The notes beneath the pieces were generated by a model that was not told the origin of the DNA, did no database searches, and saw nothing but the letters and a program-made list of their open reading frames with translations. This document shows positions 9,091-25,305 of a stretch of DNA of 32,466 nucleotides, one piece after another. Position 1 is the stretch's first letter. Each line of letters begins with the position of its first letter. The translations under genes and the position numbers were made by a program. Source of the DNA: Candidatus Kapaibacterium sp. Its GTDB lineage: Bacteria; Bacteroidota; Ignavibacteria; Palsa-1295. The DNA is taken from contig JANWLI010000191.1 of assembly GCA_025450975.1 (NCBI GenBank), forward strand, positions 1-32,466, given 5' to 3'.

Positions 9091-9453
9091 CATCCCTGCC
9101 AGCAGCGCAAACGCCGATCAAGCTCCGCAGAGCCCAATACTATCGAAATGCCCGGATATGGAAATAATGACGAGTGTGGATCTCATCATGGTGTGGAGAA
9201 TTTACACGCCCTCCTCCCTGCCAGGGAAAAGGGCCGCGGATGTGGGTGAGCCCTATCGCACCGCCTTCAGAATGCCGCCCGGATTTTCGTTAGAATATCC
9301 AGACGAATTCACGGCTTTAAAACATCATAAATGCCATCGAAGTTCATGCCGCTTTGGAAAAATGTTTGAAATGTTGTTTTAAAATGGAGTACCGATAGAG
9401 TACCGGAATATTGAAATTTATATTTATTTTAGTAGGTTCATACCTTGAGAATA

Positions 9454-9807
9454 ATGTCGGACAAAACACAGAATTTTCTGGTCTCTGTTTTATATTTAGT
9501 GGTCCTTCCTTTGGTCCCATTTTTCGTTGAATTAATAAGTGAAGAGTTTATTGCATTGAGTTCGTATTTGCTTTTTTCATCAGTTTATATTATTGTTATT
9601 GGTACTGCTTCAAAAAATAAGGCTCTGTTTGCACTATGTTTAGTCGTGGCATTAATTCTATCAATGCTTAATGGTGTGAAAGATTATCAGACTACAAATA
9701 TTTTCCCTCTTTATTCTTCCCCAGTTTCATATTGCTTAATTATTATCGCGACTATGCATGTTATCGAAAGATGGAATCGTCATATTGAAAGCGGAGAACC
9801 ATTCTAA
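9454..9807 (+). CDS. Small integral membrane protein (about 4 TM helices), hypothetical
   Basis: The ATG at 9454 is preferred to the TTG at 9445. Four hydrophobic stretches. The stop overlaps the next start (TAATG). Confidence 0.5.
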   Translation: MSDKTQNFLVSVLYLVVLPLVPFFVELISEEFIALSSYLLFSSVYIIVIGTASKNKALFALCLVVALILSMLNGVKDYQTTNIFPLYSSPVSYCLIIIATMHVIERWNRHIESGEPF

Positions 9808-10220
9808 TGACATGGGATATACTTCCATATATTGCTATTAGTGCCTCTTCAATAGCACTAATCATTTCTGCATTAAGCTTGCAAAGAAAAATTGCATCTG
9901 ATAAGCACTTTGTTGAATTGCTAATGCGCGAGCGTGAAGAAGAATTAAGAAGACTCCATCAAGAATTCAATCAATTGGTGAAGTTGCGAACAGCGGGACA
10001 CAAAGCTGTACCTGAGAGTCAGGTCAATCTTTCAATAGGTAAACTCAATGAACTTCAAAGCTCTTTCATTAAGTTCTCTGAGGCTCTCAATAAAAACGAT
10101 CGACAATATGTTCTAAATTCTTTAAATCAAGAGAGTATCTATGGAAGGGTAAATTATTTAAACAAGATACTACATCTTTCCGGCTTTCCTGAGGACATAG
10201 TAGTTAAACAAAAGGATTAA
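9807..10220 (+). CDS. Small protein with N-terminal TM helix and coiled-coil-like tail, hypothetical
   Basis: MTWDILPYIAISASSIALIISALSL is followed by a charged heptad-like sequence (REREEELRRLHQEFNQL). 1-nt overlap upstream and a 21-nt gap to the ATPase gene. Confidence 0.5.
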   Translation: MTWDILPYIAISASSIALIISALSLQRKIASDKHFVELLMREREEELRRLHQEFNQLVKLRTAGHKAVPESQVNLSIGKLNELQSSFIKFSEALNKNDRQYVLNSLNQESIYGRVNYLNKILHLSGFPEDIVVKQKD

Positions 10221-10241
10221 AAGAGACAGAGGTCATACATT

Positions 10242-12743
10242 ATGTTGCTAAAAACTGTATTCATACGATTTTATAAATCTTTCAATTTTGACTATATCGG
10301 AAGACTCGCGCGAACTCAATTTAAGGAATGGGACCGAATTGGGGAGAGAAAATATCCATTTGTAGAAGTACCTATAGAGAATGATATTACGGCAATTGTC
10401 GGTGCAAATGAATCAGGGAAAAGTCATCTGCTTAGTGCTGTAAAAGTTGGGTTGTTAAATCTCAAGACTCAATTAGAAGATGTATGCAGATATTCAGACT
10501 TCTTCAATGCAAAAGTCGGTCAGTCTAAGCTTCCGGATTTTGGGTATGAATTTTCACAATTAACCGATAGTGAGAAACTAAGGCTACAACAGATTTTAGG
10601 ACTGGAAAGCGATACTAGAATCGATAAGTTCTATTTTTTCAAATTCCTTCCTGAAGACCACAAAATTTACCTTAATGATGATCAGAGCATCTACAATATA
10701 GATGAAGCGCAGCTTAAAACTCTTTATACCATCCTACCTACGGTCTTCGAAATCAATTCGAAGATAGCACTTCCTGACAGTGTACCGTTATCTTACTTGA
10801 TTGACGAGCATAATGCACAAACGCCATCGTGGAAGAGGCTCGGAGCTTCTGGGAGAAATGATCTAGGCAATTTAATCGTTGAGAATGCTCCGCAATTTGC
10901 GACCCCAGAGGCCATCGCAAATAACAATCAGCACATTTTTAACTCTATATCCGCACGTCTAAACACACTCACTTTAGAGGAAGGCGACGTTGAAAAAACG
11001 AAGGAAAAATTAACGCAATATCAGCTGGCTGAAGCCCTCTTATATAAAATTGGCGACATAGACAAGAAGTATCTAACAGCTTTATATAAAGCATTGACGG
11101 AACGAAAGCAGGGCTTGGTTCAGGGGATACTCAATGAAATCAATCTCCGCTTGGAAGTAAGTTTGAACTTCCCTAAGTTCTGGGTCCAGGACAGAAATTT
11201 TCAATTAAGGGTTACAGTTCGAGACTACGAATTAGTTTTCACAATAAGAGATAGGACTAATACAGAATATACCTTTGCTGAACGGAGTCATGGACTTAAA
11301 TATTTTCTTAGCTACTACATTCAATATCTTGCTCATACGCCTTCTCATGCCGGTGATGAGATTCTTTTAATGGATGAGCCGGATGCGTATTTATCTTCTC
11401 AGGCGCAACAAGATCTTTTGAAAATCTTCGAAGGGTTTGCCCACCCTGCAACATTGGGCAATAAATCTGTGCAAGTAATATACGTAACACATTCTCCGTT
11501 CCTTATTGATAAGAATAACTCTCAACGTATTCGAGTGCTTGAGAAGGGGGCGCAAGATGAAGGCACTAGAGTGGTTTATGACTGTAGCCGCAATCATTAC
11601 GAACCGCTAAGATCAGCGGTCGGAATAATGGCAGGCGAAATGGTATTTATTGGTAATTGTAATTTATTAGTTGAAGGTGCATCAGATCAAATATATCTTT
11701 CCGGGGCTGCGCAGCAATTGACAAAAGATAGAATTAAAACTCCAATTGCTGAAAGGATTAATTCACAATACAACTTAGACTTAAATATTATCACCATTGT
11801 GCCATGTGGAGGCGCAGAGAATATACCTTATATGGTGTATCTGTCAAGAGGTCGTGATGTTGAACAACCAGCTATTATCGCACTGCTAGATAATGACGAT
11901 GAGGGTCTCAAGGCCCGTAGAAGACTTGCCAGGGCGATCTTAAAAGATAAAGGTCGCTTGTTACAAGCCAACTACCTCATAGGGATAGAGGATATTGAGC
12001 CCGACTTAAGCCTTGGACATAAATTGACGTGCATAGAGAGTTTAATCCCTCTGTCATTAGCTATATGCGCGGCGCACCTCTACTTTAGAGAATTATTTCC
12101 AGACCAGTCGTCACAACTCAGCGAACTGAACGCTAATGATTTGCACCTACTTGCAACTGAATCGGGCAGCGTACTTGAAGCCATTAATTTATGGATAGCT
12201 CAAAGAGGCTTAGACATTGAACTGTCCAAGATAGGCTTTGCACGATCCGTGATAGATCTTATAAAAACCGAAGAGAAGAAGGATGAGATATTTAATATTC
12301 TTGGCCTCGACGAAGGCACAAAGCAATTTAAAGAGAACATGCAGAAGTTAAATTTTAGGATTAATGAAGCTAGGAGAAAAGCTGAGGAGGAGAGGAATAA
12401 AGATCGGGTAAGCGGCAAAGTAAATAGACTTATTGATACGTTTGTTGATCATCATCAATCTGAAGTCACTAAAGAGGATCTTGAGCTGCTAATTGAGAGA
12501 ATACGGTTTAGTTTGGATGAGAGTTTAGAAAGTAGCCATATAGATTTTGTGCTCCAACAAATAGAGAGTACTCTCAAGTTGGGCGACAAGACTCTTCCAT
12601 TGATTGATGACACCATACAGTTGTACCGGCTGCTTGACATCGTGAAAAGCGCCGGCAAATTGGGCAGCCAAGATCGAGGTATACTCCAAGGGGGTGCTTT
12701 AAATGAAATCACAAAATTAATTACAGCACAGCCTGCTATATAG
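10242..12743 (+). CDS. OLD-family / PARIS-like ABC-type ATPase fused to a TOPRIM nuclease domain, with ~270-aa helical C-terminal extension
   Basis: Walker A GANESGKS (aa 54-61); signature-like SHGLKYFLS; Walker B ILLMDEPDAYL; H-loop VTHSP; TOPRIM LLVEGASDQ (Glu478) and LLDNDDEG (Asp550/552/553). Confidence 0.75.
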   Translation: MLLKTVFIRFYKSFNFDYIGRLARTQFKEWDRIGERKYPFVEVPIENDITAIVGANESGKSHLLSAVKVGLLNLKTQLEDVCRYSDFFNAKVGQSKLPDFGYEFSQLTDSEKLRLQQILGLESDTRIDKFYFFKFLPEDHKIYLNDDQSIYNIDEAQLKTLYTILPTVFEINSKIALPDSVPLSYLIDEHNAQTPSWKRLGASGRNDLGNLIVENAPQFATPEAIANNNQHIFNSISARLNTLTLEEGDVEKTKEKLTQYQLAEALLYKIGDIDKKYLTALYKALTERKQGLVQGILNEINLRLEVSLNFPKFWVQDRNFQLRVTVRDYELVFTIRDRTNTEYTFAERSHGLKYFLSYYIQYLAHTPSHAGDEILLMDEPDAYLSSQAQQDLLKIFEGFAHPATLGNKSVQVIYVTHSPFLIDKNNSQRIRVLEKGAQDEGTRVVYDCSRNHYEPLRSAVGIMAGEMVFIGNCNLLVEGASDQIYLSGAAQQLTKDRIKTPIAERINSQYNLDLNIITIVPCGGAENIPYMVYLSRGRDVEQPAIIALLDNDDEGLKARRRLARAILKDKGRLLQANYLIGIEDIEPDLSLGHKLTCIESLIPLSLAICAAHLYFRELFPDQSSQLSELNANDLHLLATESGSVLEAINLWIAQRGLDIELSKIGFARSVIDLIKTEEKKDEIFNILGLDEGTKQFKENMQKLNFRINEARRKAEEERNKDRVSGKVNRLIDTFVDHHQSEVTKEDLELLIERIRFSLDESLESSHIDFVLQQIESTLKLGDKTLPLIDDTIQLYRLLDIVKSAGKLGSQDRGILQGGALNEITKLITAQPAI

Positions 12744-13025
12744 GTCACCCACTTTCGTTATTATGACAAAACTCCTCATTAACGAGTAGTTCGATGAGTT
12801 ACAGGTTACTGATATTGATCGTTGTTGCAGGCTGCGCTCTTTATGTCGGTGTGGTGAGGGCACAGATTACTGGGGAGTCGCCTGCCTGCTTCTTCGAATC
12901 GTATACAGAGTCCCACTACCTCTCGCTTCAGCCTTCGTATAATCTCTTGCGGCGATAATGATTTTACAACTGTATGTGCTTCGCGGCTACTCAGAATTCT
13001 TCAACGACTAAATGCTGATCTCTGT

Positions 13026-17526: not shown

Positions 17527-17892
17527 TTATTGACGAAGAGATCTGATCAAGCCGTTTAGCAGTCTGCCTGTTTCCTGAGCCTTTTCCCATAACTTTTCAG
17601 CATCAGCTTTAGACATGAAGTTTAGTCTTACTGATAGTATCATCTGCGTTTCCAATTCCGCTAATGATCCTCTTGCTATCGAAAGATGATGAAGATATTC
17701 TTTACTTCCCTTGCGGTCATGGCCTTCGGCAATATTAGAAGGAATGGATATTGAAGAGCGGTTCATCTGCGAAATGATCCCGAACTGCTCTTTCGAAGGA
17801 AACTTGGATGTAGCATCATAGACCATAACAGCGAAGTCCATGGCTACCTGCCATGCCTCAAGATCACGATACGTAACAATAGTAGATTTCAT
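17527..17892 (-). CDS. Four-helix-bundle protein of the 23S rRNA intervening-sequence (S23-IVS / Avd-like) family
   Basis: YRDLEAWQ...A..V....FP..E.......Q..RS..SI.SNIAEG......KE....L.IA.GSL.E..T pattern. ~120 aa. More AT-rich than its flanks. Confidence 0.85.
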   Translation of the reverse strand: MKSTIVTYRDLEAWQVAMDFAVMVYDATSKFPSKEQFGIISQMNRSSISIPSNIAEGHDRKGSKEYLHHLSIARGSLAELETQMILSVRLNFMSKADAEKLWEKAQETGRLLNGLIRSLRQ

Positions 17893-18975: not shown

Positions 18976-18996
18976 TTTTAACTTTTGACTTTTGAC
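18976..18996. repeat. Heptamer array (ttttaac/ttttgac/ttttgac)
   Basis: Direct reading, immediately after the transporter stop codon. Confidence 0.75.
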
Positions 18997-19022
18997 TTCC
19001 CCACCAACTCCCACAAATCGCA

Positions 19023-19082: not shown

Positions 19083-19110
19083 TTGATAGTTGTCAGTTGA
19101 TAGTTGATAG
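19083..19110. repeat. Heptamer array (gttgata/gttgtca/gttgata/gttgata)
   Basis: Direct reading. Reverse-complement family of the gactatc array at 13712-13743. Confidence 0.8.
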
Positions 19111-19462
19111 CGGGATGCGCTGGAGAGTCGGTAGTCGTTAGCGGAATTCCCCGGGACCTCCGGAAATTTACACGCGCGGTGGGAGAAAATCCCACGAATC
19201 CCAGTCCGTGCCCAGAAGAGAGCGCCCGTGAAAACCATATATCTGGAAGTTGAGAACATGCGCCTGGATCGGCAAAAATGTTAGAATCGGAGAGAACAAA
19301 GCATGGGGATATGCTGTATTCGGGAGTATAACAATTATTTTATATATAGGATTCGGGGGGAATGATGCAATATCAGACTTTGGAGCTAAGCTTTTAATTT
19401 AGGCTGGATATAACTATTGGGAGAGTTGGGATAGAAATTGTGTGGAATGTATAAAAATATCA

Positions 19463-19470
19463 TATTTTTG
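19463..19470 (+). promoter_or_regulatory. Candidate Bacteroidota-type -7 promoter box (TATTTTTG = TAnnTTTG)
   Basis: Motif match 21 nt upstream of the dcm ATG. Only meaningful if the host uses FCB-type sigma-A promoters. Confidence 0.3.
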
Positions 19471-19491: not shown

Positions 19492-20586
19492 ATGACTAAG
19501 AACCCCAAAAACATTGCTTTTGATGATTTTGCCGTAGTAGATTTATTTTGCGGGATTGGTGGACTCACCCATGGTTTTATAAAGGAAAATTTTATAGTTG
19601 ATGCCGGAATTGATTTCGATCAATCATGCAAATACGCATATGAAAAAAATAACGATACAAAATTCATATACAACGATATTACCCAACTCTCTCTAAGAAA
19701 GTTAACTTCCTTATATACTAAGGGTAAGAAAAAAATTCTTATCGGCTGTGCGCCTTGTCAACCATTTTCTAAATATAATCATACTGAAAAAAAGAGTAAA
19801 CATATTGAAAAATCTAAATGGAAGTTACTCTACTCATTTTCCGCATTAATCCAAAAGCTGCAACCAAAGATTATTTCTATGGAGAATGTCCCACAACTTG
19901 TTAATTTTAATAATGGAAAAATCTTTAATGACTTTATAAGTAAGCTGCGGCGAAGTGGTTATCATATTAGTTGGTCAATTGTAAACGCACAAGATTATGG
20001 GGTTCCTCAACGACGCAAACGGTTGATTCTATTCGGATCTAAATATGGAGAAATAAAACTAATCGATAAAACTGTAACCGAAAAAAAATATAAGACAGTT
20101 AGAATGGCGATAGGCCATCTCCCACCTGTTGAAGACGGCATCGTTCTTTCAGATGATCCCTTACATAGAGCACGAAAGTTAACAGAGTTAAACAAGAAAC
20201 GAATTCAAGCAACCAAAGAGGGGGGATTCTGGCGCGACTGGGACAAAGACCTCTGGCTAGACTGCCATAAGAACGATATCGGGAAAGAATATAGAAGCGT
20301 TTATGGAAGAATGAATTGGGACGATGTTGCTCCTACTATGACGACTTATTGTGTAGGACTAAGCAATGGACGATTTGGCCACCCTGAGCAAGATAGGGCG
20401 ATTTCACTGAGGGAAGCTGCATTACTACAAAGTTTTCCAGAATCATATGATTTAATCGATCCAGAAGCAACATTCTCTTCTCCTAAAATTGCAAGACACA
20501 TTGGGAATGCGGTTCCAGTGGAACTGGGTATAGTCATTGCCAAAACAATAAAAAAACATATCAACGAAGTTGGAAGAATTAGATAA
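19492..20586 (+). CDS. dcm: DNA (cytosine-5)-methyltransferase
   Basis: Motif I DLFCGIGG, motif IV GCAPCQPFS, motif VI ENV, motif VIII QRRKR, motif X GNAVP. Confidence 0.92.
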   Translation: MTKNPKNIAFDDFAVVDLFCGIGGLTHGFIKENFIVDAGIDFDQSCKYAYEKNNDTKFIYNDITQLSLRKLTSLYTKGKKKILIGCAPCQPFSKYNHTEKKSKHIEKSKWKLLYSFSALIQKLQPKIISMENVPQLVNFNNGKIFNDFISKLRRSGYHISWSIVNAQDYGVPQRRKRLILFGSKYGEIKLIDKTVTEKKYKTVRMAIGHLPPVEDGIVLSDDPLHRARKLTELNKKRIQATKEGGFWRDWDKDLWLDCHKNDIGKEYRSVYGRMNWDDVAPTMTTYCVGLSNGRFGHPEQDRAISLREAALLQSFPESYDLIDPEATFSSPKIARHIGNAVPVELGIVIAKTIKKHINEVGRIR

Positions 20587-22738
20587 TAAGCTTCGCTGGC
20601 GATTTGACGTTAATACTTTCCGACTGCTGGGAAGAGAGCTAATTACCGATCGCATAACAGCAGTTTTCGAATTGGTTAAAAACTGCTATGATGCAAACAG
20701 CACAGAAGTAGACGTCATGTTTTTTGGTGTTGCCCCGGTTGACACTAAAAGCAAGCTAAATACAAATGGGAATGTGTCTTCAATCATAACAAAACCACTC
20801 GATGGAAAGGTGATAATTAAAGACAATGGCATAGGTATGTCATTTGAGGACATCCGTGACAAATGGATGGTAGTTGGCACAAATAGTAAGCGCGTTCAAT
20901 TGTTCTCAGATGAACCTTTCAAGAGACGGTTTGTAGGAGAAAAAGGGATAGGTCGATTTGCTGTCGATAAGTTAGGTGCTCAAGTAAAAATCATAACAAA
21001 GAAGGCTGGCGATGTTAGCTGGTTAAATGTTGAAATAAATTGGGAGGAGTATGAGAGCAAAGCATCGCAAGAGCAGTTAATCTTATTTACGGATATTGAG
21101 AACAAATACTATTATACTGACGCCTCAGTAGATGAGCAGGGGACAATTCTTGAAATTACTAAAATAAACGATTATTGGACAAAGCTTGATATTGACAGGC
21201 TTTTTAAAGAATTAGCTAAAGTTGTTTCTCCTTTTTTTGCTTCAGTCAACCCATTTAATATTTATCTAACTTGCAGTGACTTCCCAGACTATGTAAAAAA
21301 GAAGCACGTAAAAGCCGATGAAACCAAATATTCGTCCCATAAGGCAACTATAGATTTCGACCTTAATGCTGGGTCACAAGAACAATTAGTATTTGACGAA
21401 AAGGGCGGTCAAATCAACACTGAGAAAATTCCGATAAAATCGTTTGGCCCTGTAAAAATGCTACTCTACTACTTCAACAATGAAGCAAAAAAACGGTATA
21501 ATCGGGCATATAAGAACGACGACTCTAGAATAGATGGAATTAAGATTTATCGGAATGGAATAATCACCACTCCATTTGCAGAATTTGAGGCGCATCCAGA
21601 TAAAAAACGAGATATCTTAGGTATTGATAAGAGATTATGGAGAGATATTTTTAATAAAGTCAGTAGTCGCGAAGTTATCGGCATAGTTGAGATAACAAAA
21701 GAAAACAACCCTCAGATTATTGATGCGACGAATAGACAAGACTTTGTTGATACGCTGGAATTCAGAGATCTAAAAGTTTTTATAATTCAGCAACTTGATG
21801 TTCTTGCCAAGTTAAAACAATATGAAAGGAGCAAGACAAAGGCGCAGCGACAAACTGCTCTGGAGAAAGCTGGGGCCGACATTAAGTCTTTCAAAGATGT
21901 TATTGAAAATATTGAAAGTCAAAATCCTGTTCTTAAGGAGTATTTAGAGCCGCTTAAAGAGCAAGCAATTCAAATTGGGAGAACAGTTTCAAAGGGAATT
22001 CAAGAGCAAAAAAAAGAGCGCGAAGAATTCACTCGGAAAGAGAATATTTATTTTTCATTGATGTCCTTGCAGGACTATGCAATACGGATATCACATGCAG
22101 TTCGAACCTCACTGGGCAAAATTAAAAGAATGGCCGAGTACTTCAAGGACCATTTCCCAGATGAAAACTTAACTGATGATTTCAAGGAATACTCGCTGCT
22201 TATCTATGAAGAGATGAATACTTTAAGCAGAGTCATCGATTTTATGCTAAGCTATGCAGCTTCTAATGCTGATTTCGTCGACTTCAGCGTAAAAGAGTTA
22301 ATTTTGAACCTTCTCACCGTATCCTATAAACAGACCTTTAAAGATGAAGGCATAACGCTAACAATTGACATTAAGGATAATTTTATAGTTAACGCCAATA
22401 AAAAATTTTTTGAAGACATAATACAGAATCTCGTTTCGAATTCCATAAAAGCTCTCCAAAAAATGCCGAATAAGCATATAAAGTGCACGGGATATATTGA
22501 GGACAAGCAATTTGTTTTCTTTTTTTCTGACAATGGCGTAGGAATAAAGAGAGGCGAAGAAGATAAAGTTTTTGAGATCTACTACACAACGACAGCAGAA
22601 GAAGGTGGTGCTGGTCTTGGGTTATTTATTGTAAAGACCAGGATTGAAGCTTTGAAAGGCACGGTCGAGATTGTTCAACCTGAATTCAATCCGAGCGGTG
22701 CGACGATTAAAATCACATTGCCATTTAGGGAGGGGTAG
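20570..22738 (+). CDS. Fusion protein: N-terminal MORC/HATPase_c_3-like GHKL ATPase + coiled coil + complete histidine-kinase core (DHp + CA)
   Basis: N-terminal module: ELVKNCYDA, DNGIGMS, GEKGIGRFA, then GIKIYRNGI (S5-like region). C-terminal module: H-box ISHAVRTSL (His509, nt 22094-22096), NLVSNSIKA, DNGVGI, GGAGLGLFIVK. The TTG start overlaps dcm by 17 nt; there is no in-frame ATG before the first N-box. Confidence 0.7.
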   Translation: MEELDNKLRWRFDVNTFRLLGRELITDRITAVFELVKNCYDANSTEVDVMFFGVAPVDTKSKLNTNGNVSSIITKPLDGKVIIKDNGIGMSFEDIRDKWMVVGTNSKRVQLFSDEPFKRRFVGEKGIGRFAVDKLGAQVKIITKKAGDVSWLNVEINWEEYESKASQEQLILFTDIENKYYYTDASVDEQGTILEITKINDYWTKLDIDRLFKELAKVVSPFFASVNPFNIYLTCSDFPDYVKKKHVKADETKYSSHKATIDFDLNAGSQEQLVFDEKGGQINTEKIPIKSFGPVKMLLYYFNNEAKKRYNRAYKNDDSRIDGIKIYRNGIITTPFAEFEAHPDKKRDILGIDKRLWRDIFNKVSSREVIGIVEITKENNPQIIDATNRQDFVDTLEFRDLKVFIIQQLDVLAKLKQYERSKTKAQRQTALEKAGADIKSFKDVIENIESQNPVLKEYLEPLKEQAIQIGRTVSKGIQEQKKEREEFTRKENIYFSLMSLQDYAIRISHAVRTSLGKIKRMAEYFKDHFPDENLTDDFKEYSLLIYEEMNTLSRVIDFMLSYAASNADFVDFSVKELILNLLTVSYKQTFKDEGITLTIDIKDNFIVNANKKFFEDIIQNLVSNSIKALQKMPNKHIKCTGYIEDKQFVFFFSDNGVGIKRGEEDKVFEIYYTTTAEEGGAGLGLFIVKTRIEALKGTVEIVQPEFNPSGATIKITLPFREG

Positions 22739-22739
22739 G

Positions 22740-23360
22740 ATGCCGATTTCTAGCATAAAAACTGTTATAATTCATGATAATTTATCTCCACGCGATCCCC
22801 TGATCGTTGAACTTCAAAAAATATACGGCAAAAATAATGTTATTTTTTTTAAGGATGCTCAAGAAGGCTTAACCTATCTAAATGAACATATTACTGAAAA
22901 ATTAATAGTATTATTAGACCTAAATTTTGAGTCGTCGAACCCTCTCACAGGCGGAAAACTTTTTGAAGAAATTCGGAAAAAAACCTCATTAATTTACGTG
23001 ATTATATGGACTGCAGCAGACTTAAGTTCTGTCGACAAAGAAGACCTTGTTAGTTTTATAAATAACGATGCTCTTGCATTTGCATATGCAACTGCGGACA
23101 CCGCGGAAATCATCAATCTTATCAATAAGGCATCTCATCAACTCTCAACCAGAATTGACGCCCTACTTGAAGATCTGATTGCCCACCAACCTAATAATAC
23201 GAAGGACACTCCAACCTTCATGACAAAGGATGGGAAACAATATACCTTAAATGAAATAGCAGATAGCATACGCCATCAGGATGAGCTGGGCAAAATGATA
23301 GAAGCGAGCATCTTAAATTTAGCTATCGACTTATTAATACGACATGAGAAGCCGATCTGA
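22740..23360 (+). CDS. Receiver (REC)-like domain protein with uncharacterised C-terminal half
   Basis: The ATG at 22740 lies 1 nt after the upstream stop. It aligns by eye to CheY: VIIHDN (beta1), LIVLLDLNF (Asp60, nt 22917-22919), YVIIWTA (beta4 Thr). The conserved beta5 Lys is not evident. Confidence 0.45.
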   Translation: MPISSIKTVIIHDNLSPRDPLIVELQKIYGKNNVIFFKDAQEGLTYLNEHITEKLIVLLDLNFESSNPLTGGKLFEEIRKKTSLIYVIIWTAADLSSVDKEDLVSFINNDALAFAYATADTAEIINLINKASHQLSTRIDALLEDLIAHQPNNTKDTPTFMTKDGKQYTLNEIADSIRHQDELGKMIEASILNLAIDLLIRHEKPI

Positions 23361-23980
23361 TGGTACATGTAATTGTTGCTTATGATGAGATTGCATCGAA
23401 AGGAGGCTCTTATTTCCAAGAGAGTTTTGACTACATTGCCGGTAAACTTAACGCCCTCTCCGCCGTAACTGTAAGACCTCTACCGAATGCAAGATGCACC
23501 AAGCAGAGCATTAAGTCTGAAATTGAATCCTTAGAGAAATTTATTTTTGTCGGGATCTCTCACGGCCATGAAACCCTTCTTAAGGCGAACTCTATCTACG
23601 TTGAGTCAAGTGACCTTGCACTATTTGAAGGTTCTTTTTTTTATACAGCCGCCTGTTTGACAGGAAGAATTTTAGGACCCGCCTTGATTGCACATGGATG
23701 CGTCGCCTACATAGGCTATACTGTTGATGTAGATGTATGGCTTTCGCACTCCTCTACCTTTGCTGACTGTGAGAATTACGCGCTCTGCGAGTTTATCACA
23801 TCTGACAAAACTGTTAGAACAGTTTTTGATGAAGCCGTTACCAGATACAACACTGAAATTAATCGACTTCTAAATGGGAATTTCCTTGATGTAATTGCCG
23901 CATCATTTCTTCGATCGAACCGAAATGGCCTTTTAATTATTGGTAACGAGAGATCTACTGTTCATGATTTTGACTGCTAG
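23360..23980 (+). CDS. Hypothetical protein with caspase/clan-CD-like His-Gly ... Ala-Cys pair (possible protease effector)
   Basis: FIFVGISHGHE (His68, nt 23561-23563) and FFYTAACLTG (Cys99, nt 23654-23656), each following a hydrophobic beta-strand-like stretch. Start overlaps the upstream stop (TGATG). Confidence 0.35.
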   Translation: MVHVIVAYDEIASKGGSYFQESFDYIAGKLNALSAVTVRPLPNARCTKQSIKSEIESLEKFIFVGISHGHETLLKANSIYVESSDLALFEGSFFYTAACLTGRILGPALIAHGCVAYIGYTVDVDVWLSHSSTFADCENYALCEFITSDKTVRTVFDEAVTRYNTEINRLLNGNFLDVIAASFLRSNRNGLLIIGNERSTVHDFDC

Positions 23981-24402
23981 TGTCTGACATCTTTAGCAAT
24001 GAGAAAAGAAGCCAAATCATGGCTTCGGTAAAGTCTATTAATACTCGTCCTGAGATTGTAGTTAGGAAATACCTATTTGCTTGTGGTTTTAGATATCGCA
24101 TTAATCACCCCAAATTACCTGGTAAACCTGACATTGTGCTTCCTAAATATAAAACTGTAGTTTTTATTCATGGATGCTTTTGGCACGGGCATCGAGAGTG
24201 TGAAGCTTCTCAATTGCCTAAAACTAGGTTAGACTACTGGTCAAAAAAAATAGAAAGTAATTCTCTCAGAGATAAAAAAAATGTTTCGAGTTTAAGAATA
24301 CAGGGCTGGCAGGTTATCATCGTTTGGACATGCCAACTATCAAATAAGTCAAAGAAAGAAAAAGCGCTCACAAAACTAGTTCGAATGATATCGAAACCAT
24401 AA
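23980..24402 (+). CDS. vsr: Very short patch repair endonuclease
   Basis: KRSQIMASVKSINTRPE, RKYL...GFRYR, GKPDIV, FIHGCFWHGH. 140 aa. GTG start overlaps the upstream stop (TAGTG). Confidence 0.9.
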   Translation: MSDIFSNEKRSQIMASVKSINTRPEIVVRKYLFACGFRYRINHPKLPGKPDIVLPKYKTVVFIHGCFWHGHRECEASQLPKTRLDYWSKKIESNSLRDKKNVSSLRIQGWQVIIVWTCQLSNKSKKEKALTKLVRMISKP

Positions 24403-24551
24403 ACATTACGTCCTGTATCTTTGATTATCCTTGTCTTGCAGTCTCACTTCTGGGCTTACCTTGTTGCGTTCCTTGGTAGTTGTCAGCGGCCCGCGAACAC
24501 GCGTGGCGTGTCCCTACGGGGTGCACTTCGCGCGTATCCTCGCGCTTGTAC

Positions 24552-25019
24552 TTACTTCTTCACTGCGCTTTTGAGGGTGTCGGCTTCGAAGATTGCTTCT
24601 TCTATTAATTTGCCTTGTTCGTCGAAGCGTTGGGCGGTGCCTTGGCGGTAGCCGTAGCTGTAGTGGATCGTCTGCGCGAGCTGGCCGTTCTCGTGATACC
24701 ATTTCTGCGTGCCGTGCTGGGCCGAGCATTCAAATGCGTACGCTTCCTCGACGTTGCCGTTCTCGTAGTAGAAGAGGCTCCGCACGAGGCGTCCGTTGGT
24801 GAACGTGTGTTTGAAATCGAGTTTTGTCGTGTCGTCGCCCCAATAGTTTTTTAGTTCGCCGGTGTACCCGGGCGCAACGCCACTCTCGGTTACGAGCGCG
24901 TTCTCGAATTTCAGTGCGATCGCACAGCTATCGAGCGGCGCAGCGACCTGCGCGTCCGGCTGCGACTTCGTGCAGGAGACGAGCAGCAGCGCGATGAGAA
25001 TGAGGGAGATGGGTGTCAT
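24552..25019 (-). CDS. MORN-variant repeat lipoprotein (YwqK-like)
   Basis: The internal ATG at 25019 gives MTPISLILIALLLVSCTK (lipobox). Repeats of the form G....Y.ENG....... (FYYENGNVEE, WYHENGQLAQ, FDEQGKLIEE). Confidence 0.6.
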   Translation of the reverse strand: MTPISLILIALLLVSCTKSQPDAQVAAPLDSCAIALKFENALVTESGVAPGYTGELKNYWGDDTTKLDFKHTFTNGRLVRSLFYYENGNVEEAYAFECSAQHGTQKWYHENGQLAQTIHYSYGYRQGTAQRFDEQGKLIEEAIFEADTLKSAVKK

Positions 25020-25045
25020 GTTGGCCAAAGGCCAAATTAAAAATT

Positions 25046-25053
25046 CAAAATTA
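25046..25053 (-). promoter_or_regulatory. Candidate -7 box (minus strand TAATTTTG)
   Basis: TAnnTTTG match 27 nt upstream of the ATG at 25019, in a very AT-rich 58-nt spacer. Confidence 0.25.
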
Positions 25054-25077
25054 GAAATTAAAAAAGGGGAATGTCCT

Positions 25078-25305
25078 TTACACGGCAACCGGATAGACTA
25101 CGTCGTTACGGAGCGCCTGCGCGGCAAAATCGAGTGCGGCGGAAATATCTTCTTTCGTAAGTTTTGGATAGGAGGACAGGATGGCGTCCACAGTCTCGCC
25201 ATCGGCAAGCTTTTCGAGAATAAGCTCGACGGGGATCCGCGTACCGCGAATGGTCGGCTTTCCGAAAAGGATGTTTGGGTCAGATACGATGCGAGGTGTA
25301 TCCAT
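25078..25305 (-). CDS. DUF433-family small protein (antitoxin-like, HTH)
   Basis: IVSDPNILFGKPTIRGTRIPVELILEKLADGET...ILSSYP.LT.EDI.AAL.FA is the characteristic DUF433 pattern. 75 aa. Confidence 0.8.
   Translation of the reverse strand: MDTPRIVSDPNILFGKPTIRGTRIPVELILEKLADGETVDAILSSYPKLTKEDISAALDFAAQALRNDVVYPVAV

Follow-up and report, generated by a model that had tools for sequence, protein, structure and literature searches.

The window examined here is a stretch of 32,466 nucleotides (nt) from Candidatus Kapaibacterium sp. (assembly GCA_025450975.1, contig JANWLI010000191.1, forward strand). At positions 19492-24402 it carries five intact, translationally coupled open reading frames (ORFs) on one strand, in which genes for a cytosine DNA methyltransferase (dcm) and for Vsr enclose three others, encoding a fusion of a GHKL ATPase with a histidine kinase, a receiver protein and a caspase-like protein. 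This cassette appears to represent an unnamed sub-family of wide distribution, with a minimal caspase-like protease as its effector, and it looks like an uncharacterised immune system. On balance, it is probably a mobile immune system resembling restriction-modification (R-M), in which restriction has been outsourced to a phosphorelay that ends in a protease. It is characterised by the domain identities of its products, their intact catalytic residues, the strict synteny of four of the genes and a swappable fourth slot. The five genes are as follows.

19492-20586, plus strand: dcm (product P1), C5 cytosine DNA methyltransferase of 364 amino acids (aa)
20570-22738, plus strand: GHKL/histidine kinase fusion (P2), 722 aa, TTG start, 17-nt overlap with dcm
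22740-23360, plus strand: receiver protein (P3), 206 aa, ATG start, 1-nt gap past the TAG stop codon of the P2 gene
23360-23980, plus strand: caspase-like protein (P4), 206 aa, TGATG overlap at 23358-23362
23980-24402, plus strand: vsr (P5), 140 aa, GTG start, TAGTG overlap at 23978-23982

The junctions were read base by base, and the overlaps and the gap between the same-strand ORFs are just as a preliminary description of the window had reported them; every motif which that description quoted was also found in the translations. The TTG start of P2 is backed by N-terminal alignment with 23 homologues, and the GTG start of vsr by alignment to the Vsr model.

The two outer genes are clear, as had been claimed. 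P1 matches DNA_methylase (PF00145) over its full length at 2.9e-66, TIGR00675 at 4.2e-47 and the PADLOC family MTase_II at 2.1e-93, and its translation shows the C5-methyltransferase motifs I, IV, VI, VIII and X. P5 matches Vsr (PF03852) at 2.3e-33, TIGR00632 at 2.6e-43 (over positions 1-118/119, above the cutoff) and the PADLOC Vsr family at 7.9e-30. Vsr is the very-short-patch-repair endonuclease, which fixes the T:G mismatches born of the deamination of 5-methylcytosine (5mC). The slot beside such a methylase is normally taken by a restriction nuclease.

P2 is the central component of the cassette. From its N to its C terminus it consists of a HATPase_c_3 GHKL ATPase, a putative S5-like transducer domain, a coiled coil, a DHp helix bearing His509 and a CA domain. 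Pfam assigns HATPase_c_3 (PF13589) to aa 30-169 at 3.2e-19 and HATPase_c to aa 612-720 at 1.5e-21, while the HisKA match at aa 507-563 is sub-threshold (4.8e-4; 20.6 bits vs the Pfam cutoff of 26.9). Hardly any variation is seen across 84 sequences at E34, N38, D41, D85, G87, G89, G123-G128, H509, N620, N624 and D654 or in the G-boxes: His509 is found in 83/83, and N620, N624, D654, G656, G658, G680, G682 and G684 are conserved. In an alignment of 24 homologues, too, both ATP-binding domains keep their Bergerat motifs.

The middle region of P2 (aa 165-447) was modelled with moderate confidence, at a predicted local distance difference test (pLDDT) score of 74.8. The top 17 Foldseek matches of this model are all GHL ATPase-transducer modules, namely those of ParE, GyrB, MORC3, MutL and HtpG (E 7e-4 to 0.2; template modelling (TM) scores of 0.19-0.33). 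No nuclease is among the Foldseek matches of the region, and a sequence-profile search of PDB with it gave matches at chance level only. The domain matches, the invariant motifs and these structural matches identify P2 as a GHKL module of the MORC/paraMORC kind, followed by a putative transducer-like domain and connected through a long helix to a kinase core made up of DHp and CA. The preliminary description, which had recognised a MORC-like ATPase fused to a DHp/CA kinase core, was right in this respect, as the Pfam and NCBIfam domains and the invariant motifs attest. The protein is soluble, with no hydrophobic segment evident in its sequence. An insertion of about 18-25 aa, APVDTKSKLNTNGNVSSIITKPLDG, lies at residues ~56-80 (window 20735-20810), where it separates the N-box of the N-terminal ATPase from the G1 box; APVDTKSKLNTNGNVSSIITKPLDG is missing from all 23 aligned homologues.

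P3 alone gives a weak match to Pfam Response_reg, at 0.012. Its relatives exceed the threshold of this family (PF00072), with 47.4 and 37 bits. Moreover, a profile of 24 P3 sequences matches 154 solved REC domains in PDB over profile positions 1-135, with a best value of 1.3e-10, and D13, the phospho-acceptor D60 and T/S91 are each kept in 81/81 sequences. The third gene thus encodes the REC-like protein that had been expected, with Asp60 intact. The C-terminal ~70 aa of P3 are conserved as well (E144, W146, R178 and G184), and this part has no match in Pfam or among PDB sequences.

The fourth protein, P4, is recognised chiefly by its predicted fold. Its AlphaFold2 model is highly confident (pLDDT 96.5, predicted TM score 0.92), and all 42 of its Foldseek matches in PDB at E<=1e-3 are clan-CD peptidases. 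These matches include caspase-4/7/11, gingipain R/K (TMq 0.67, the best), the SAVED-CHAT protein 8tl0 (TMq 0.66), separase, C11 peptidase and legumain, with the Craspase entries falling just past the cut-off at 1.4e-3 and 3.7e-3. The dyad occupies the canonical clan-CD positions, S67-H68-G69 following the strand 61-66 and A98-C99 following the strand 92-96. Despite an overall identity of about 29% to the window protein, relatives keep H68 in 78/78 sequences, G69 in 78/78 and C99 in 79/79. The structural model therefore confirms P4 as a homologue of clan-CD (caspase/gingipain-like) cysteine peptidases that stands alone, in agreement with the caspase-like protein and the His68/Cys99 pair of the preliminary description.

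At the level of sequence, P4 is far less conspicuous. No Pfam or PADLOC family matches it above threshold, so that it falls into no curated family (C14, C25, C11, C13 or CHAT); Peptidase_C25 is its sole Pfam match and lies below threshold (0.0037; 17 bits vs the cutoff of 23). The relatives of P4 have no Pfam match either, and the family profile finds only chance-level matches among PDB sequences. A single-sequence search of an index of 5.8 billion proteins returned P4 itself only. Homologues were recovered through synteny and then by profile search: the positional equivalents in three related loci are 32-33% identical to P4, and the family profile finds 2048 cluster representatives at E<=1e-3, of which the best 150 are 157-223 aa long, mostly ~200-215.

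Compared with a Type II R-M system, the cassette contains the cognate methyltransferase and shows no recognisable restriction endonuclease fold. Restriction of the conventional Type II or Type IV kind, with a nuclease hidden in the middle region of P2 or in the C-terminal 70 aa of P3, or with Vsr acting as a nicking nuclease, is nevertheless worth weighing. The N-terminal ATPase of P2 is nearest to the GHKL domain of the BbrUII/HgiDII restriction enzymes (NCBIfam NF050001; 2.2e-19, below the cutoff), and PADLOC gives weak REase_II matches for P2 as its only ones, with none for P3 or P4. Furthermore, the model of the P2 middle region is of moderate confidence, and the C-terminal part of P3 lies outside the modelled regions. 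Against this, the likeness to HgiDII is confined to the ATPase part (positions 47-187 of a model of 659), and the middle region resembles the transducer modules of GyrB, ParE, MORC3 and MutL. At E<=1, searches of Pfam, NCBIfam and PADLOC with the three middle proteins return no nuclease family (PD-(D/E)xK, HNH, GIY-YIG or PLD) apart from the GHKL-domain matches of P2. The earlier observation that no nuclease signature is seen in them holds across Pfam, PADLOC, NCBIfam, the PDB sequence search and Foldseek searches of the two models (P4 and P2 aa 165-447). In addition, Vsr is missing from about 80-90% of related loci, and a hidden nuclease would leave the strictly conserved His/Cys dyad of P4 without explanation. 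Conventional restriction is consequently a very unlikely account, and the reading of the cassette as an immune phosphorelay with a protease at its end is the one followed here.

This arrangement of genes is found far beyond the window. The P2 family has more than 2499 homologues in the protein index, and relatives occur in at least 528 species-representative genomes. Synteny was counted with our own ORF and hidden Markov model script in the 80 closest species-level loci of these at least 528. The preliminary description had raised the co-occurrence of the three middle genes in other genomes, and the kinase, receiver and caspase-like genes adjoin in 75/75 loci with enough sequence. The same gene order in all informative loci, which come from different species, shows that the operon is far beyond a chance arrangement. 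The dcm gene lies directly 5' of the kinase gene in 72/76 loci and nearby in three others, and none was detected in locus L082. The hosts of the surveyed loci are mostly Bacteroidota, and they also include Thiomicrorhabdus and a member of the Methylococcaceae (Gammaproteobacteria), Treponema (Spirochaetota) and an Aminicenantes bacterium.

Median identity to the window falls along the operon, from 50% for P1 and 48% for P2 to 36% for P3 and 29% for P4. In other words, the putative effector P4 is the fastest diverging component. Additionally, the dcm subfamily switches along with the kinase clade.

Two related loci depart from the usual layout. In the Chitinophaga sancti chromosome (L003:4767-14133), the trio occurs without an adjacent dcm; a DUF3427+HNH_2 gene lies 5' of it, and a HEPN-like gene and McrBC lie 3'. 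Two C5-methylases and an MmeI-type enzyme are found further 5', and the whole forms a dense defence island. In a metagenome-assembled genome of the Chitinophagaceae (L026:4870-11818), an extra GHKL-type gene, encoding ~670 aa and weakly matching the P2 profile at 4e-15, is inserted after dcm; the kinase, receiver and caspase-like genes and vsr come next, in this order.

The role of Vsr is of a different kind. It adjoins the cassette in 7/75 loci and lies within +/-8 kb in 14/80. The description of the locus as a dcm...vsr operon is correct for the presence of both genes in the window, but Vsr is no fixed boundary; given that it adjoins so few loci, the core of the cassette is dcm plus the three middle genes, and Vsr is an accessory. 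These counts also bear on the idea of a module for the repair of 5mC damage, in which a MutL-like ATPase would aid Vsr at the T:G mismatches caused by dcm. E. coli MutL stimulates Vsr (cited in PMC2292703), and dcm, a MutL-like GHKL domain and Vsr do occur together in the window. Such a module is scarcely probable, for the rarity of Vsr at these loci speaks against it and it offers no role to the kinase core, the receiver or the caspase-like protein.

More distant relatives of the kinase, carried by plasmids, show what else may stand in the fourth position. A Stenotrophomonas plasmid encodes dcm, the GHKL-kinase, a receiver-like protein of 212 aa and a protein of 226 aa with SHG and SC motifs, and the latter is homologous to P4 (hhalign E 2.5e-6). 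In the Deinococcus gobiensis plasmid P2 (L089:3544-8511), the corresponding genes encode an Eco57I-type N6-methylase, the GHKL-kinase, a weak receiver and an HNH endonuclease (PF01844, 40 bits). A plasmid of Hymenobacter volaticus (L087:3646-8780) encodes an N6-methylase, the GHKL-kinase, a protein of 227 aa and a hydrolase of the metallo-beta-lactamase (MBL) fold. The 227-aa protein was considered as a homologue of P3 and rejected, as homology was not detectable, and the Hymenobacter locus is for this reason a loose analogue only. On Campylobacter and Enterobacter plasmids, the kinase stands beside receiver proteins of 340-357 aa whose C-terminal domains are of no known type. As distant plasmid relatives hold HNH or MBL proteins in it, the fourth position is a swappable effector slot, filled by a caspase-like protein here and by a nuclease or hydrolase in other lineages. 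Around the GHKL-kinase, methylases of different types can replace one another, and so can effectors.

Among Campylobacter plasmids such a locus is common. Conjugative plasmids of C. jejuni and C. coli, ~50-75 kb in size and represented by 43 plasmid records (L085:4992-9457), encode a GHKL-kinase of 736 aa, after which come a receiver of 340 aa and a convergent dcm. The C-terminal domain of this receiver, ~200 aa, is uncharacterised, and the annotation reads just 'sensor histidine kinase / response regulator'. A blastn search with an Enterobacter relative found no match in complete E. coli genomes.

The cassette also bears marks of mobility. The GC content is 0.36-0.41 over ~19.0-24.4 kb and 0.52-0.61 in the flanks on both sides, which bears out the AT-rich block with GC-rich flanks of the preliminary description. 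An AT-rich island in a GC-rich host indicates horizontal acquisition. Among 150 sampled neighbours of related loci, the most frequent are integrases (7), coupling proteins of type IV secretion systems (T4SS) and relaxases. HNH_2, Schlafen-AlbA_2 and HerA-like proteins occur there too, as do several PADLOC families, PDC-M26A, mad8, LmuB, SduA and DndD among them. As raw counts of neighbours, these figures fit mobile defence islands. Viral contigs contain only 6 relatives, so the cassette is not typically phage-borne.

Mobility of this kind would also suit a selfish addiction module. Loss of the cassette would then dilute methylation, the kinase would sense under-methylated host DNA, and the protease would kill or arrest the cell; the mechanism would be the same, and selection would act on maintenance of the element. 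Classical Type II R-M systems act in this manner (discussed in PMC8011034), relatives of the cassette reside on conjugative or large plasmids beside integrases, relaxases and T4SS coupling proteins, and the methylase gene comes first in the operon. On the other side, many loci have no recognisable mobility genes within +/-8 kb. Addiction and defence are compatible with each other and cannot be split by sequence data. As a rival to defence, addiction is rather improbable.

The immune reading can be set out as a sequence of proposed steps. P1 is proposed as the self-marking component and possibly as the sequence-specificity subunit too: dcm would mark the host genome and might recognise the sequence as well, a task that falls to the Mod subunits in Type I and Type III systems. 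P2, as judged from its domains, is proposed to be both sensor and kinase. It would form a homodimer through the four-helix bundle of DHp, and its N-terminal MORC/MutL-like GHKL-S5 modules would shut on DNA in an ATP-dependent manner. MutL, Hsp90 and MORC proteins share a clamp layout, with constitutive C-terminal and ATP-gated N-terminal dimerisation, and the same layout is proposed for P2. Contact with foreign DNA that lacks methylation, or with self DNA that is under-methylated, would be transmitted along the coiled coil to the DHp-CA core and lead to autophosphorylation of His509.

From His509, the phosphoryl group would pass to Asp60 of P3, the putative phospho-acceptor and adaptor. Phosphorylated P3 would then recruit or activate P4 through its conserved C-terminal region, perhaps by receiver dimerisation and induced proximity. 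P4, the proposed effector, would cleave host or phage proteins, so that infection might be aborted or the establishment of foreign DNA blocked. Vsr, where present, would merely limit the C-to-T mutational cost of 5mC.

A more specific form of this idea, to which we give somewhat less than even credence, regards the GHKL-histidine kinase as the first with the epigenetic state of DNA as its input. An ATP-gated clamp, possibly together with the methylase, would read unmethylated DNA and signal through a His-Asp relay to a minimal caspase-like protease, which would kill the cell or cut the proteins of the invader rather than its DNA. The effector slot would hold a protease, an HNH or an MBL protein, and the system would operate in hundreds of species.

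Several observations weigh against an immune phosphorelay. His509 is followed by A, I, M or V in 83 P2 sequences and never by an acidic residue, unlike the His of HisKA kinases and of the HEF_HK kinases compared below; the H-box in the window reads S-H-A-V-R-T. In P3 of the window clade, His12 replaces the first acidic residue and Ala117 replaces the beta5 Lys, so that two of the five canonical residues are gone. Owing to these two replacements, the phosphorylation chemistry of P3 may be altered in this clade; the beta5 Lys is kept in the more distant half of the P3 family. An output domain that binds DNA might be formed by the C-terminal ~70 aa of P3. Additionally, no substrate for a protease is encoded in the cassette, and a search of the five proteins against PADLOC-DB gave no named system beyond MTase_II and Vsr.

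Some of these points would suit a regulatory two-component system, which would act on the linked methylase or on other genes in an epigenetic or phase-variable manner and in which P4 would be a protease with a regulatory task, such as breaking down the methylase or the receiver. The published reading of the sister HEF_HK/Response_reg_2 systems is regulatory, the conserved C-terminal region of P3 could provide the output, and a cassette that crosses phyla could be expected to carry its own substrate. Yet no helix-turn-helix (HTH) or other DNA-binding family matches P3 in Pfam, NCBIfam or the PDB profile search, and a swap to HNH or MBL proteins in the fourth slot is typical of defence effectors, not of regulators. 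Moreover, a mobile, patchy spread and a fast-evolving fourth gene are ill-suited to a housekeeping regulator. A regulatory role is accordingly unlikely, and the immune cassette is the reading carried into the comparison with known systems.

The closest prior art is the HEF_HK/Response_reg_2 system. Bellieny-Rabelo, Pretorius & Moleleki (2021, PMC8011034) described HATPase_c_3-HEF_HK-HATPase_c kinases beside Response_reg_2 proteins in 628 strains and proposed a regulatory role for them; a C5-methylase is located 5', Vsr often lies just 3' of the receiver-like gene, and links to paraMORCs were noted. Both families are known from computation alone. They share a soluble kinase with HATPase_c_3, DHp and HATPase_c, a receiver-like gene directly 3' of it, the C5-methylase at the 5' side and Vsr at the 3' side. 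The window differs in having a caspase-like gene between the receiver gene and vsr, strictly linked in its family. The H-box His of HEF_HK is followed by Glu or Asp, whereas the window family is non-acidic after His509, and the relatives of the window receiver match the canonical Response_reg.

PF19191 (HEF_HK) has no match in the window at E<=1 or in six relatives at E<=0.1, although the model does weakly match an Agrobacterium kinase. PF19192 (Response_reg_2) has no match in the window proteins, and 17 relatives match neither PF19191 nor PF19192. The lack of matches to these two models, the different H-box, the canonical Response_reg relatives and the extra linked caspase-like gene together argue for a separate sub-family. 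The caspase-like partner is not mentioned in the text of PMC8011034, though one of the unnamed neighbour groups there (OG_8, 16, 20, 24, 294) may be that family. The remark that the operon was not recognised as a named system stands in part: PADLOC names none and this family lies outside the known models, but the theme is not wholly unrecognised in view of PMC8011034 and PMC2292703.

Detocs (Rousset et al. 2023, 10.1101/2023.01.24.525353) is an experimental precedent in which a relay from a histidine kinase to a receiver drives an anti-phage effector, and its effectors are swappable. The cassette shares with it the modular effectors, a stand-alone receiver (DtcB) and, as proposed, the kinase-receiver phosphorelay as immune signalling. 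The sensor of the Detocs kinase DtcA is a TPR domain, whereas the window has a GHKL/MORC ATPase and no TPR. In Detocs, the effector is fused to a receiver (DtcC-PNP) and there is no methylase partner; in the window, the effector is a separate gene.

The paraMORCs were defined by Iyer, Abhiman & Aravind (2008, PMC2292703) in R-M operons that also contain dcm and Vsr, and their C-terminal effectors vary, a nuclease of the restriction endonuclease fold and TIR being examples; neither a kinase fusion nor a caspase is described there. In common with the MORC/paraMORC and BbrUII/HgiDII proteins, P2 has an N-terminal HATPase_c_3 with intact Bergerat motifs, followed by what may be a transducer-like domain, and is encoded beside a cytosine methylase and Vsr. 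It differs in that its C-terminal module is a histidine-kinase core rather than a nuclease, a helicase partner or TIR, in that the putative effector is two genes away and in that no superfamily 2 (SF2) helicase is present.

P4, in turn, is comparable to SAVED-CHAT (8tl0) and to the TPR-CHAT protease of Craspase (7zoq, 7xss), with which it shares the caspase-hemoglobinase fold and the His/Cys dyad. The genes of these proteases lie in immune operons and a sensor acting upstream switches the proteases on, much as is proposed for P4; they set a precedent for caspase-like proteases as effectors of defence. P4 itself is a minimal domain of 206 aa, without SAVED, TPR or another sensor domain, and it would be activated by a phosphorylated receiver instead of a cyclic nucleotide or a CRISPR complex. 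MADS (10.1101/2023.03.30.534895) was considered as well and found to be unrelated; it is an eight-gene system, and a histidine kinase is mentioned in connection with it only as a flanking landmark gene. The cassette is not described in PMC7159879, PMC13092281 or PMC12839542, and literature searches for the combination of a kinase/receiver pair with a caspase-like protein found no description.

If the immune reading is true, the cassette unites epigenetic marking of self and non-self, phosphorelay immune wiring and caspase-like executioners, which have hitherto been studied apart. For phosphorelay immune wiring, Detocs is the sole validated case found. The cassette would also offer a tractable bacterial model for the reading of DNA state by MORC-type GHKL ATPases and would add a minimal caspase of 206 aa to the protease toolbox. 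Nor is it rare, with at least 528 species having a kinase relative and 2048 cluster representatives of P4. Its proteins are unnamed and unflagged by PADLOC, and therefore defence annotation probably overlooks the system across Bacteroidota.

Further features were recorded at the borders of the island:

19083-19096, no strand assigned: 14-nt direct repeat, left copy, TTGATAGTTGTCAG, which falls just beyond the AT-rich island
19463-19470, plus strand: candidate Bacteroidota-type -7 promoter element, TATTTTTG, 22 nt 5' of the dcm ATG
24473-24486, no strand assigned: 14-nt direct repeat, right copy, TTGGTAGTTGTCAG, 71 nt past the vsr stop codon

The repeat TTGRTAGTTGTCAG has two copies only in the window, at 19083 and 24473, which bracket the island; 0 are expected from 100 shuffles, with a pattern that was picked post hoc. 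The pair may be an insertion scar, an att-like boundary or a host intergenic repeat element. As the pattern was chosen post hoc and no integrase lies inside the dcm-vsr island, the repeat is suggestive only as a boundary. The upstream intergenic region also contains short tandem motifs, TTGACTTTTGACTTTTGACTT and a repeated TTGATAGTTG (18985-19005 and 19083-19116). The candidate promoter element fits TAnnTTTG, the consensus of Bacteroidetes sigma-AB promoters. A scan for sigma-70 promoters and terminators gave a number of sites not above that in shuffled sequence.

To the left of the island, a gene at 17527-17892 on the minus strand encodes a 23S ribosomal RNA (rRNA) intervening-sequence protein, a bAvd-like four-helix bundle. 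To the right, at 24552-25305 on the minus strand, a DUF433 gene overlaps with a MORN-repeat gene. None of these immediate neighbours has a match in PADLOC. A gene flanking the island encodes a sorting domain of the type IX secretion system (T9SS), from which a GC-rich bacterium of the Bacteroidota is the probable host.

A second AT-rich island occupies 9100-12750 of the window, with a GC content of 0.35-0.42, and contains three nearly abutting ORFs:

9445-9807, plus strand: product of 120 aa
9807-10220, plus strand: product of 137 aa
10242-12743, plus strand: product of 833 aa

The two small products, of which the 120-aa one is apparently membrane-spanning, are without any match. The 833-aa product is an OLD-family protein that combines an ABC-ATPase with a TOPRIM nuclease (Pfam AAA_15, AAA_21 and OLD-like_TOPRIM; PADLOC AriA at 9e-18, GajA and Old). 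This second island is probably a separate defence gene or system within the same window.

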